DNA of 63,473 bases, counting the filler, from Octopus bimaculoides (taxonomy: Eukaryota): the NCBI RefSeq assembly GCF_001194135.2. It is 5 parts of 5 records of this genome, joined end to end, with 100 filler letters (N's around TTAATTAATTAA, not from the genome) between each part and the next. Parts side by side here need not be neighbours in the genome. Positions count along the whole stretch, not along the records: positions 1 to 21,433 come from NC_068997.1; positions 21,534 to 50,965 come from NC_068985.1; 3 more parts are not named here. One strand, given 5' to 3'. Under the pieces are notes generated by a model. That model saw nothing but the letters and a program-made list of their open reading frames with translations. It did no database searches and had not been told where the DNA came from. This document shows positions 2,689 to 41,586 of this stretch, in pieces (within the stretch, counting starts at the first letter, position 1; the number at the start of each line of letters is the position of its first letter). The translations under genes and the position numbers were made by a program.

Positions 2689-2724
2689 GATCTGAAGAAG
2701 GAATTGTAATTCCGAAATATCATC
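2689..2724 (+). ncRNA. Minimal type-I hammerhead ribozyme motif (Penelope-associated type)
   Basis: GAT-CTGAAGA-A-GGAATT gt AATTCC-GAA-ATAT-C-ATC: intact CUGANGA and GAAA core, 6-bp stem II, palindromic stem III (AUAU), AUC cleavage triplet, 3-bp stem I. Confidence 0.6.
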
Positions 2725-3831
2725 GGACTATAGATAACCAAGTTACAACAGGTATATAGTCCATTTTTTTGTTCTATAGTGCATTGTTATACCATTCTAA
2801 ACTTATTATTCTTTAATGCTATGTTTTTAATTGTTTAATTCTTTAACCGTTCGCTCGCCTACTGTTACCTGTCATATTTCGGTGATTTCAGTGGTGGATT
2901 TGGGACTTTGACTCCTATTTCTATGACATATACCAGACGTAAAAGTACTGAGATCTCTTACGATCAACTAAAACCATTCAATGTCGTGTCCCAGCATGAA
3001 CCATGATCCAGTAAACTGAAACAAAATAAAAGAACTGACTGCGTCCACTTCAAAATCGGAAGACACCACATTAATTAACAGTCTGTCGCTTTGAACTCGG
3101 TAAACCCTATGTCATCTTCAAATCTACTCGAGTGATTTTTGGCGACCGAAGAATTTTGTCCCACTTAAATGGAAAATGAATAGGCTTATGAATGATGAGG
3201 TAAATGAGGTTGGGAAGTGATGGCTGAAAGGAAATGTAAAGAAGAAAAAAATGTTGTTGCTGTTGTTGTTGTTGTTGTTGTTGTTGTTACTGCTATGTTC
3301 TTTGTTGTTGTCGTTGTTGTTGTTGTTGTTTAGGCAATAACCGGTCAAGTTTGATTAAGCAGACGACCAATGTTGAAAAGCATTAGAATTAAAAACCACT
3401 TTTATTTTCTTTAAATATGTCTCTTTATTCAATATAGCGCATTACAAGTTGCGGACGCAGTGTGGCCGGGTGCTCAAGACGTTTGCTTCGCAACTACGAG
3501 GGCCCTTGTTCGCGTCAGCTCGGCGTCCCTGGCTCCCGCATTATTTTTGTTTTTCTTTTAGTTGTGGATGATATTTGTCAGAGTGAGAATCGTTGTCTTT
3601 TGTTTAGGAATGTCATTTATTTCGATGTCAGTCTGGTGCTAGGGATACGATGAAGAAGCAGTAAAATAACTGATAACAGTGAATCGTTTAATTGATCAAA
3701 ACGCAGTCTCTCTCTCTCTCTCTCTCTCTCTCTCTCTCTCTCTCTCTCTCTCTCTCTCTCTCTCTCTCTACATATATATACAGGCGTTGGAGTGGCTGTA
3801 TGGTAAGTAGCTTGCTTACCAACCACCTGGT

Positions 3832-4024
3832 CCCCGTAACTTAGCGGTTCGTCAATGAAGATCGATAAAATGTCCCCGTAACTTAGCGGTTCGTCAATCG
3901 AGATCGATAAAATGTCCCCGTAACTTAGCGGTTCGGCAATAAAGATCGATAAAACGTCCCGTAACTTAGCGGTTCGTCAATGGAGTTCGATAAAATGTCC
4001 CCCGTAACTTAGCGCTTCGGCAAT
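3832..4024 (+). repeat. ~42-bp minisatellite (about 4.6 units) derived from a SINE internal segment
   Basis: Units CCCCGTAACTTAGCGGTTCGTCAATGAAGATCGATAAAATGT resemble SINE family A CCCCGTAACTTAGCGGTTCGG...GACCGATAGAATAAGT; preceded by a SINE head at 3783-3831. Confidence 0.9.
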
Positions 4025-4161
4025 ATATATATATATATATATATATAAAAATACATACATACATACATACATATGTATATATATATATATGTATATATGT
4101 GTATATACTTATACATACATAGAAACATATACATATATATATGTATATATATATATATATA

Positions 4162-4560
4162 GGCGCAGGAGTGGCTGTGTGTTAAGTAGCTTGCTTACCA
4201 ACCACATGGTTCCGGGTTCAGTCCCACTGCGTGGCACCTAGGGCAAGTGTCTTCTACTATGGCCTCAGGCCGACCAAAGCCTTGTGAGTGGATTTGGTAG
4301 ACGGAAACTGAAAGAAGCCCGTCGTATATATGTATATGCATATATATATTTGTGTGTCTGTGTTTGTCCCCCCAACATCGCTTGACAACCGATGCTAGTG
4401 TGTTTATGTCCCCGTCACTTGGCGGTTCGGCAAAAAGAGACCGATAGAATAAGTACTAGGCTTACAAAGAATAAGTCCTGGGGTCGATTTGCTCGACTAA
4501 AGGCGGTGCTCCAGAATGGCCACAGTCAAATGACTGAAACAAATAAAAGAGTAAAAGAGT
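4162..4560 (+). mobile_element. tRNA-derived SINE family A, full length (head, TA/TG core, tail ending TAAAAGAG repeats)
   Basis: GGCGCAGGAGTGGCTGTGTG...GGTTCAGTCCCACTGCGTGGCACC head with A/B-box-like motifs; many copies in the window. Probably one of the described octopus tRNA-derived SINE families (OK/OR types); exact name not assignable here. Confidence 0.9.
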
Positions 4561-5368
4561 ATATATATATATATATATATATATACATACATACACTCGT
4601 TCACATTTTACGTCGACATCGCACGATTTCACTCTGTGGCCGTTTCATGCCTTTCTCCGTATCCTTCCCTCCCTTCCGCTTAACTCCTTTGTTTTTCACT
4701 TGTTCCCTTCTTCTCTAATGAGTCTCTGCCATTGGGATAACACGCACATACAGCATTTCCACCCTAGGACGCCTTCACACACACTCACACACACACTCAC
4801 ACTCACACACACACACTCACACTCACACACACACTCACACTCACACACACACACAAAATAACCATCGTGAGATCATAACGCAAAGTTAGAAATGGTACGC
4901 ATACACCTCACACATAAACACAATAAGATCAGAATGCTCACACCGAGACACCCAAACGCTCACACGCGTCCGCATTCACGGACTTACACGCTCTATAATT
5001 ATACAAAGGGAGACGGATATCTGAAGTAATCAATGATCTGGACAGATTTAACCGATAAATGTGGCCAGGAAATAGAGACAGGATAATAATGGGACCAGAG
5101 ACAATATAGCCATTGGTATGGTTGGCGCAGAGCAGATCTGCAAAACGAGGACAACAAAAACAAGAGATTTTTTAATTAGATAACCATGTATGTTAATGTA
5201 TGAACGTACTACATACACATATGTATGTATATATANNNNNNNNNNNNNNNNNNNNNNNNNNNNNNNNNNNNNNNNNNNNNNNNNNNNNNNNNNNNNNNNN
5301 NNNNNNNNNNNNNNNNNNNNNNNNNNNNNNNNNNNNNNNNNNNNNNNNNNNNNNNATGTATGCTTGTG

Positions 5369-5750
5369 TGGAGGCGCAATGGCCCAGTGGTTATCGCAGC
5401 AGACTCGCGGTTTCGATTCCCAGACCGGGCGTTGTGAGTGTTTATTGAGCGAAAAGCACCTAAAAGATCCACGAGGCTCCGGCAGGGGATGGTGGCGAAC
5501 CCTTCTGTACTCTTTCACCACGACTTTCTCTCACTCTTACTTCCTGTTTCTGTTGTGCTTGTAATCCAATGGGTCAGCCTTGTCACACTGTGTCACGCTG
5601 AATATTCCCGAGAACTACTCTGCGGAGTGCTCAGCCACTTGCACGTTAATTTNNNNNNNNNNCTCTGCGGAGTGCTCAGCCACTTGCACGTTAATTTCAC
5701 GAGCAGGCTGTTCCGTTGATCGATCAACTGGAACCCTCGACGTCGTAAGT
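5369..5750 (+). mobile_element. tRNA-derived SINE family D
   Basis: A box TGGCCCAGTGG, B box GGTTTCGATTCC; 3' half similar to 18590-18905. Confidence 0.8.
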
Positions 5751-39524: not shown

Positions 39525-39628
39525 AAAAATGTCTCTGTAGCAGACTTCCCAAGTTTAATGCAAAATTTCACACTGACTCTTTGTTCCAACTTCCTGTCCA
39601 TGAAAAAATTACAGGCTACAACATACAC
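39525..39628 (-). mobile_element. Mariner transposase N-terminal stub
   Basis: MDRKLEQRVSVKFCIKLGKSATETF matches the mariner N-terminal EQR..IKFC.KLGKSATET motif. Confidence 0.8.
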
Positions 39629-39850
39629 ATCATCATCATCGTTTAACGTCCGTTTTCCATGCTAGCATGGGTTGGACGATTTGACTGAGGACTGGTGAAA
39701 CCAGATGGCTACACCAGGCTCCAATCTGATTTGGCAGAGTTTCTACAGCTGGATGCCCTTCCTAACGCCAACCACTCAGAGAGTGTAGTGGGTGCTTTTA
39801 CGTGCGACCAGCACAAGGGCCAGTCAGGCGGTAATGGCGGTTACAAGAAC
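39627..39850 (-). mobile_element. Family C repeat, young copy (CpGs retained)
   Basis: CATCATCATCGTTTAACGTCCGTTTTCCATGCTAGCATGGGTTGGACG... Confidence 0.85.
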
Positions 39851-41039
39851 ACAATCTCACAACTTGTGAAGTAAAAGCAGTGATGTCACTTGGCACACTG
39901 CCTCATAAAGGTNNNNNNNNNNNNNNNNNNNNNNNNNNNNNNNNNNNNNNNNNNNNNNNNNNNNNNNNNNNNNNNNNNNNNNNNNNNNNNNNNNNNNNNN
40001 NNNNNNNNNNNNNNNNNNNNNNNNNNNNNNNNNNNNNNNNNNNNNNNNNNNNNNNNNNNNNNNNNNNNNNNNNNNNNNNNNNNNNNNNNNNNNNNNNNNN
40101 NNNNNNNNNNNNNNNNNNNNNNNNNNNNNNNNNNNNNNNNNNNNNNNNNNNNNNNNNNNNNNNNNNNNNNNNNNNNNNNNNNNNNNNNNNNNNNNNNNNN
40201 NNNNNNNNNNNNNNNNNNNNNNNNNNNNNNNNNNNNNNNNNNNNNNNNNNNNNNNNNNNNNNNNNNNNNNNNNNNNNNGCTTTTAGAAAACAATTTCAGC
40301 ATTTAGCACAACTTGTATCCTATCAGATCTATACTTTACACTTTAAATGAGACTCCTTCATAATTCCCCTTGACAAATATCAATATATTCATTAGATTGA
40401 TAGAAGCAATAATTGATCGACTGTCTATTGATATGGTTGTTTTGGATTTGCATTTTTCCTGCTTGACCAAAACAGCCATATTGATATACAATCAATCACT
40501 TACTGTGCCCATCAATTAGACATAACTATTCCTTATTTTTTACTGAAACACCACTAGTTTTATTGCTTATTATCAAACAGAATGAATCACAAAATATCGT
40601 TAGTTCAACATAATAGGATGTTGAATCAAGTAGGTTCATAAGAGCATTAGAAAATCTACAAAGCTTCAACTCTCAGAGAACTGGTTTTCTTTACCCATTT
40701 ACAGTCAGCTGTTTGTCATCGTACAACATTTATTCAGGTTTGTATTCCCCAATCAAGAACTAGTGCCCACTACAAAACCTTTAAACTCTAGTACTTCACC
40801 AGTGGGTCATGATAGACAAGTTCATTATTACATACTCTTTGCCAAGTATGTAACATGCAGCAGTGATAGTGCATTCAATAGTTAAGTGTGTACATTACAT
40901 AACTATTGTGTCAAGACACTCGAGTTCACTAAAATACTCTCACAGCTATAAAACTGATTCTGTACATTGCAGTGCAATATTTATTCTCTAAACCCTTGTC
41001 CTTTTGGGATATATTTAGCATACATATATGCAAGATATA

Positions 41040-41434
41040 TACTTGCTTCAGCCATTAGACTGCAACCATGCTGGGGGAACTGTCTCAAAGAATTTTTAGT
41101 CAAATATATCGACTCCTGTACTTAGCATTTTTAAAGCCTAGTATTTATTCTATCAGTTCCTTTTGCCAAACTGCAAAGTTACAGGGATGTAAACACACCA
41201 GCACTGGTTGTCAAGGGGTGTGGAGGAGGGACAAACACAAAGAAACACACACACACACACACACACACACATATATGATGAGATTCAGTTTCCATTTACC
41301 AAATCCACTCACAAGGGTGTGGTTGGCCCAAGATTATAGTAGAAGACAATTGCTCAAGGTGCCATGCAGTGGGATTGAACCCAGAACCATGTGGTGGGGA
41401 AGCAAGTTTTTTACTACACAGCCACACCTGCACC
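41040..41434 (-). mobile_element. SINE family A, full length
   Basis: Antisense match. Confidence 0.85.
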
Positions 41435-41551
41435 TCTATATATGTATATAGTAAATAAATAAATAAAAAATGAAGAACAAAAAAAAAAAACAACGCAAGG
41501 ACGTGGTACATGTAAAGTACTAGCAGACACTCAGGGAAGGAAAGAAAGGTG

Positions 41552-41586
41552 GTTTTACGTTTCGAGCAAAGCTCTTCTTCAGAAAC
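41552..41586 (-). ncRNA. Minimal type-I hammerhead ribozyme motif
   Basis: Reverse complement GTTT-CTGAAGA-A-GAGC ttt GCTC-GAA-ACGT-A-AAAC: intact core, 4-bp stems I and II, palindromic ACGU stem III, GUA triplet. Confidence 0.7.

Follow-up and report, generated by a model that had tools for sequence, protein, structure and literature searches.

Short hammerhead ribozyme motifs in an animal genome raise the question of whether they are working catalysts, chance resemblances or the residue of mobile elements. This question is addressed here for a 63,473-nucleotide stretch of Octopus bimaculoides DNA (GCF_001194135.2; hereafter the window), an AT-rich composite of five joined parts that is dense with microsatellites and holds 5,768 N bases across 26 gaps, in which a first-pass annotation had proposed three minimal hammerheads (motifs 1 to 3, Table 1). 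These motifs are likely inert 3'-end remnants of several families of Penelope-like elements (PLEs), and the family of motif 2, which carries U at core position 6 (U6) where hammerheads have A, most likely holds an impaired ribozyme and was amplified with no requirement for cleavage. The architecture of the motifs and their extra A are already known, and their recovery amounts to an ordinary rediscovery of the PLE minimal hammerheads of 2014; the family-wide U6 is the new point and matters modestly.

All three motifs lie at the positions and on the strands first given for them, motifs 1 and 3 read as described there, and the three are real and stand far above chance. Hammerhead descriptors, drafted post hoc with the motifs already known, were compared with 300 local dinucleotide shuffles of the window. 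The strict form gave 2 matches against 0 in the 300 shuffles, the form allowing one stem II mismatch gave 3 matches that were exactly motifs 1 to 3 (shuffle mean 0.003, maximum 1), and the loosest gave 4 (shuffle mean 0.017, maximum 1). Across the five descriptors tried, no shuffle yielded more than one match, an excess over shuffled sequence of the kind on which the first-pass annotation had staked its claim. Removal of the extra base between A9 and stem II from the descriptor left zero matches in the window, and a census allowing one core change returned five sites, namely motifs 1 to 4 and a mirror copy of motif 1, of which motif 4 and the broken mirror copy had been overlooked earlier.

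Judged by sequence, the motifs are minimal type-I hammerheads of the PLE kind. Such motifs are described in the pseudo-long terminal repeats (pseudo-LTRs) of metazoan PLEs by Cervera and De la Pena (2014; PMC4209133), who report as general traits a base between positions 9 and 10.1, a G10.1-C11.1 pair, a palindrome, high within-genome variety, and the occurrence of both solitary copies and opposite-strand pairs. The window motifs share the type-I layout, the short stem I, the unpaired base between A9 and G10.1 (A in motifs 1 to 3, G in motif 4), the G10.1-C11.1 pair and the ACGU or AUAU palindrome, along with a U-rich 5' flank in motifs 2 and 3, several mostly solitary sequence families in one genome, and an opposite-strand pair, such pairs lying 100-700 bp apart in the published set. 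The core CUGANGA...GAAA...UH is present in motifs 1, 3 and 4, which also directly show a stem II of 3-7 bp opening with G10.1-C11.1 and a stem I of 3-7 bp; motif 2 has these stems in its family majority, not in the window copy. Motifs 1 and 3 agree with the published consensus (U-rich flank, CUGANGAH, G10.1-C11.1, GAAA, palindrome, H), which bears out their original assignment, and the palindrome replacing helix III is self-complementary in motifs 1 to 3, as had been stated, and has one mismatch in six bases in motif 4. Unlike the published motifs, motifs 1 to 3 have no PLE open reading frame (ORF) seen beside them.

Two structural details required revision. Stem II of motif 1, read earlier as the 6-bp GGAAUU/AAUUCC, has 5 bp in the predicted fold (ViennaRNA), and the 6-bp form, which would leave a 2-nt loop, was rejected. 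The A between A9 and stem II, earlier proposed as a lineage-specific variant, is not lineage-specific because it is the commonest form in the published set: by hand count, 54 of the 56 aligned rows in PMC4209133 have an extra base (30 A, 12 U, 11 C and 1 G, with 2 having none). Cephalopods are absent from the PMC4209133 supplement file that was searched, no octopus hammerhead study was found in the literature searched (including the searched text of PMC6765202, PMC11014351 and the preprint 10.64898/2026.07.22.740005), and octopus Penelope families are given in the searched text of PMC13282606 with no mention of ribozymes.

Motif 2 departs from the consensus at a point that the earlier formula CUGNNGA had concealed. 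The architecture said to be common to all three sequences is common to motifs 1 and 3, whereas motif 2 carries U6 and ranks as a variant of the PLE minimal hammerhead rather than a canonical one; its stem II in the window is not the GAGC/GCUC described but GAGC/GUCC, where one position is an A.C mismatch and another a G.U pair (11784-11785). The predicted cut site lies after A11794 (after C2721 in motif 1). An alternative register of motif 2, with a U3-G8 core from 11770, was rejected by eye, as it loses stems I and II.

Family-level evidence was obtained from two read mappings, one of the motif-1 segment (2420-2960, 4 runs) and one of the motif-2 segment (11705-11878, 4 runs from 3 studies), with run X20 (share 0.05) left out. 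Summed contig depth reached 1,411,237 at motif 2 (45 in the flank) and 555,072 at motif 1 (44 in the flank). According to the tool's own warning this depth is not copy number; a correction for contig overlap, with a divisor as high as 31, gives brackets of roughly 1,000 to 31,600 for the motif-2 family and roughly 400 to 12,500 for the motif-1 family. In the motif-2 family, the majority letter is C at 11784 (995/1,065 reads in X21; 660/714 in X23) and T at 11785 (974/1,065 and 633/714, respectively), which restores GAGC/GCUC and thus identifies the stem mismatch as decay of the window copy. While stem II is repaired in this way, position 6 is not: no letter other than U reaches 10% at 11770 in any of the four runs, in a table listing every difference of at least 10%, so U6 is the family norm, which holds for the DNA contigs carrying two organism labels (X3, X12) as well as for both RNA runs. 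Core position 7 (11771) varies (302/1,110 in X21; 130/745 in the second RNA run), and at no other core position, nor at the extra A or along the 5' strand of stem II, does a variant reach 10% in any of the four runs. The variants in the stems and palindrome fall mostly at CpG sites, as in neutral decay (379/1,099 at 11779, 129/1,065 at 11786, 262/1,068 at 11791 and 160/1,066 at 11792); others lie at 11783 (156/1,065) and H17 (125/1,063). Read depth in this family peaks on the motif itself. RNA reads on the segment numbered 1,162 (X21) and 779, of which 99% run on into unlike sequence and so derive from other loci, and loose ends of reads indicate that copies elsewhere extend upstream. A second depth plateau (~260,000 in X3) at 11837-11878, just before the TA run, is likely the conserved 3' end of the family.

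A scan that demanded the extra A but allowed any base at position 6 returned five metagenome stretches from other sources, all five with A6 (two are identical, and one is GC-rich with a poor stem I), and none in prokaryote genomes or viral contigs. Three of the five (L001:3001-3029; L003:546-577, minus strand; L005:1915-1946, minus strand) lie in AT-rich contigs and combine the extra A with a GAGC/GCUC stem and an ACGU palindrome; no PLE ORF was recognized by eye near these three. A natural A6U, CUGUUGA or CUGUCGA hammerhead was not found in the literature searched, a provisional result that leaves uncovered Hammann 2012, Arkhipova 2017 and Lunse et al. 2017, the likeliest place for such variants. 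In contrast to the motif-2 family, A6 occupies all 56 rows in PMC4209133, but the descriptor used there required A6. A pyrimidine at core position 6 is shared with the natural A6C hammerhead of phage Bcep176, which cuts poorly in Mg2+ but well in Mn2+ (Perreault et al. 2011, Naghdi et al. 2020; PMC3088659, PMC7151607); unlike that C-bearing core with its stable helices, which is known from one phage and was assayed as Mn2+-favoring, motif 2 has U and belongs to a high-copy minimal animal repeat. With A6C, a fast ribozyme fell in Mg2+ from a rate of 0.3 per min to 3.55e-6 per min (300 uM; PMC7151607); U6 is predicted by analogy to impair cutting and would likely weaken or stop it.

The link to PLEs is carried further by motif 1, which sits within an insertion of typical PLE form, truncated and arranged back to back. 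Its two inverted arms align with 3 substitutions and 1 gap across 154 columns, only the left arm bears a one-sided extension, over which read depth persists (to ~2452), and a 13-bp direct repeat, likely a target-site duplication, brackets the unit and has only these two occurrences in the window, a 13-mer being common to 33 of ~20,000 random tile pairs. The penelope-element trait set of 5' truncation, inverted partner, one-sided tail and target duplication is thus present. Inverted truncated copies with a one-sided 30-40 bp tail are the PLE insertion layout reported by Craig et al. 2021 (PMC8557442; PMC11167929 is a further source on the origin of the tail), and the back-to-back copies, ~42-nt tail and flanking duplication at motif 1 resemble it, as do the TA-rich flanks at motif 2. 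Unlike those insertions, the motif-1 unit retains only ~200 bp of the element, from which a clade is not assignable. Other copies of the motif-1 family run on past 2651 (loose ends of reads, 30 letters shown), so the window copy is 5'-truncated. The GAU defect of the mirror copy is private to the window, since family reads mostly carry the intact letter (136/152 in X21; 106/117 in X22). No unique flanking duplication was found at motifs 2 and 3.

Both arms of the motif-1 unit fold as one hairpin (~-237 kcal/mol, predicted), and a read-through transcript would form a 150-bp hairpin burying both hammerhead copies. A microRNA identity for this hairpin was rejected, as the Rfam matches are below the gathering score; microRNA-type matches occur only on this hairpin, where they result from the inverted duplication, and on microsatellites. 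Short tandem duplications at the unit (21 bp x2 and 12 bp x2, within 2404-2448 at the left junction and 2638-2663 at the center) are perhaps template slips during insertion.

Published work suggests that the window motifs originated in PLE pseudo-LTRs. In the source element, a long transcript would carry one motif in each of its two pseudo-LTRs, and these motifs would pair via their 4-nt palindromes and cut after H17, likely with help from the element's protein; the helix III duplex is predicted at +1.6 kcal/mol for AUAU and -1.7 kcal/mol for ACGU, and minimal monomers are reported as inactive and dimers as weakly active (PMC4209133). The window copies, scattered as 5'-truncated copies, would be partnerless. 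In agreement with the first-pass annotation, no intact same-strand hammerhead neighbor was found near any motif, although N gaps limit the view (one of 544 N begins 113 bases past motif 2), and no tandem array of hammerhead units was found at any motif in the window, where N gaps could conceal some. The dimerization in trans that had been invoked for this arrangement is unneeded, as solitary motifs are the published norm and are taken as remnants of truncated PLEs (PMC4209133). The U6 family would most likely have expanded from a master copy whose ribozyme was weakened or dead, and it could spread with a poor ribozyme because cleavage is likely unneeded for insertion: the Anolis PLE ribozyme requires the protein of its element in order to cut, its catalytic mutants left insertion in vitro unaffected (PMC11167929), and hammerheads may merely parasitize PLEs (PMC8557442). 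On whether PLE hammerheads have to cut before their element can spread, PMC11167929 indicates that cutting is dispensable in vitro. If U6 is dead, the family would represent massive Penelope-type amplification without ribozyme cleavage in vivo; if active, it would represent a new tolerated core. The likely A6 sister family of motif 3 would offer a ready control for U6 within one genome, and descriptors built on CUGANGA would overlook the entire U6 family.

Several observations weigh against a reading of the motifs as PLE ribozyme remnants with an impaired U6 branch. In folding, no motif outperformed its own shuffles (z of 0.02, 0.89, -0.67 and -1.02), no hammerhead family appears among the 150 of 217 Rfam matches listed for the window, and local Rfam scans of motifs 3 and 4 gave none. 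No PLE ORF was seen beside motifs 1, 2 or 3 in the window, the loose ends of reads extending 30 letters, and the ORF fragment upstream of motif 4 (see below) has no Pfam match or homologue found and is a lead only. No compensatory pair is demonstrable in the motif-1 or motif-2 families from unphased read tables, so that the covariation claimed earlier stands between separately picked motifs and not within families. A variant at 2689 in 37/76 reads (X21) would open the outer stem I pair of motif 1 unless a partner change is linked to it, in a table that leaves 149 rows unlisted and therefore states family core conservation only in part. No piles of RNA ends occur at the cut site in either mapping, to which fragmented libraries are insensitive, and no A6U assay was found in the literature searched. 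RNA-seq of an anole PLE likewise showed no ends at the cut site (PMC11167929).

That U6 is instead a working natural variant, kept active by an element protein or by a different metal preference comparable to that of the Mn2+-favoring A6C, appears unlikely, and we give the same modest credence to the proposition that the thousand to tens of thousands of U6 copies still cut, protein-assisted or manganese-favoring. Its appeal lies in a core that is otherwise uniform in all four runs while position 7 varies, in the recurrence of U6 under two organism labels, in the residual low Mg2+ and good Mn2+ activity of natural A6C, and in the precedent of a PLE hammerhead that needed protein to cut (PMC11167929). 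Uniformity is nevertheless expected of copies from a single master whether selected or not, the concentration of stem and palindrome variants at the four CpG sites resembles neutral decay, and the fall in Mg2+ rate caused by A6C was severe (PMC7151607).

Somewhat less probable still is the assignment of motifs 2 and 3, and perhaps of motif 1, to short elements without autonomy, retrozyme-like or similar to short interspersed nuclear elements, that use a borrowed reverse transcriptase. The first-pass annotation had likewise proposed several distinct non-autonomous families, of which the distinctness holds, motifs 1 and 2 belonging to large distinct repeat families, and the non-autonomy is unsupported because motif 1 is built like a truncated PLE insertion and both families run upstream. 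The lack of any ORF seen beside motifs 1 to 3 and the shortness of the motif-2 unit between TA runs would suit such elements, as would the description of non-LTR retrozymes, which are said to derive from PLEs, to be non-autonomous and to exist as monomers too (10.64898/2026.07.22.740005), and with which the motifs have in common a type-I hammerhead carried by short non-coding repeats akin to PLE pseudo-LTRs. Published retrozymes, unlike the window units, are however defined by tandem units, no unit in the window is tandem, the motif-1 and motif-2 units continue upstream in other copies, and the inversion, tail and flanking duplication at motif 1 are features that 5'-truncated PLE insertions typically show. 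As to the circular or unit-length RNA expected of a retrozyme, RNA reads of both families run in both orientations, with no joint back to the unit start among the rows shown and no piles of ends.

That U6 seems fixed only through read-mapping bias, with A6 reads failing to map on a diverged copy, is considered very improbable. The window copy is indeed far from its family (870/1,162 X21 reads are less than 90% alike), and motif 2 therefore loses reads whose similarity is close to the 80% limit; reads of motif 3, a likely sister with A6, would fall below that limit, and the seeding rule of the tool is unstated. Reads changed at 11771 or 11779 were nevertheless mapped by the hundreds despite breaking the same exact stretch, which makes a seeding bias unlikely, and the U6 subfamily alone yields the measured depth even if A6 sister families exist. 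Finally, the idea that the motifs arose by chance in AT-rich repetitive DNA, to which the short stems, post hoc descriptors and lack of folding advantage or Rfam match lend some color, is ruled out to a negligible residue by the shuffles and both read mappings, in which depth peaks on motif 2 itself and family letters restore both the mirror-copy core and stem II of motif 2.

Remnants of several PLE families being the preferred reading, the relation among the motifs and their neighboring ORFs is of further relevance. The three sequences had been called unrelated-looking, which does not apply to motifs 2 and 3: their local alignment score of 85 was not reached in any of 300 shuffles (mean 40.5), to which the shared core contributes. 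Their downstream 80 nt scored as high in 14/300 shuffles and their upstream 80 nt in 166/300, and motif 3 likely represents a sister family to motif 2. No recognizable domain emerged from translation of the sequence upstream of motif 3. The suggested check for linkage to PLE ORFs or tandem arrays found no ORF at motifs 1 to 3 and no arrays, and gave one lead, a 57-amino-acid (aa) ORF end upstream of motif 4 on the same strand, the rest of which is concealed by an 845-N gap. In Atlas, this fragment is placed at 0.95-0.96 to unnamed clusters and at 0.88 to the nearest named one, GIY-YIG, which is a lead only; the fragment likely represents the C-terminal end of a GIY-YIG endonuclease from a PLE.

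A broken ORF at 23851-25300, with CxxC and CxH motifs near the end of its GIY-YIG-like domain, indicates that the window contains PLE-like elements. Atlas places this ORF at 0.93-0.95 to GIY-YIG and HTH_animal clusters, with no useful Pfam match, and its 3' end enters an N gap (23711-23810) where any 3' hammerhead would fall. Pfam searches of 8 ORF fragments gave no match at E < 0.001, and no protein homologues of the two endonuclease-like fragments were found. Two further broken ORF ends, at 57688-58334 and 61155-61773 (both plus strand), resemble the zinc knuckle and restriction-like endonuclease of non-LTR retrotransposons (Pfam zf-RVT at E 0.004 only).

Table 1. Hammerhead motifs and associated features, in window coordinates.
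Feature	Position	Strand	Remarks
13-bp direct repeat, left copy	2441..2453	+	likely target-site duplication
One-sided extension (tail), ~42 nt	2454..2495	-	left arm only; outside arm alignment
Left arm of inverted pair	2496..2649	-	5'-truncated 3' end of repeat
Mirror copy of motif 1	2588..2623	-	broken core (GAA to GAU at 2596)
Right arm of inverted pair	2663..2815	+	contains motif 1
Motif 1, minimal type-I hammerhead	2689..2724	+	canonical CUGAAGA core; extra A at 2699; AUAU palindrome
13-bp direct repeat, right copy	2810..2822	+	overlaps right arm by 6 bases
Old diverged copy of very abundant motif-2 repeat	11735..11877	+	between TA-rich runs; left border uncertain
Motif 2, minimal hammerhead	11762..11799	+	U at core position 6 (11770); ACGU palindrome; extra A
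Broken PLE-like ORF	23851..25300	-	reverse transcriptase (YRDD, in-frame stops), then GIY-YIG-like domain
Motif 3, minimal hammerhead	41552..41586	-	canonical CUGAAGA core; extra A; ACGU palindrome; U-rich 5' flank
Motif 4, hammerhead with extra G	55235..55274	-	6-nt near-palindrome (one mismatch)
57-aa ORF end	55624..55797	-	350 bases upstream of motif 4, same strand; cut by N gap

Three side observations were made. Among family reads over 2452-2815, A>G plus T>C sites are in excess in motif-1 family RNA (46/112 in X21 and 62/126 in X22, compared with 14/73 in DNA contigs of X3; Fisher p 0.002 and 2e-5, respectively), possibly through A-to-I editing of hairpin RNA from inverted copies, which is unproven because the RNA and DNA come from different animals; motif 2, at a different threshold, showed no such excess. 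Tandem arrays of a 42-bp unit (x4.6), a 161-bp unit (x1.8) and a degenerate 7-bp unit occur at 3830-4024, 60624-60920 and 17946-18494, respectively. A dispersed 150-250-bp repeat is found at 4113-4361, 7231-7479, 21910-22139, 30181-30375, 41284-41450 and 63254-63470.

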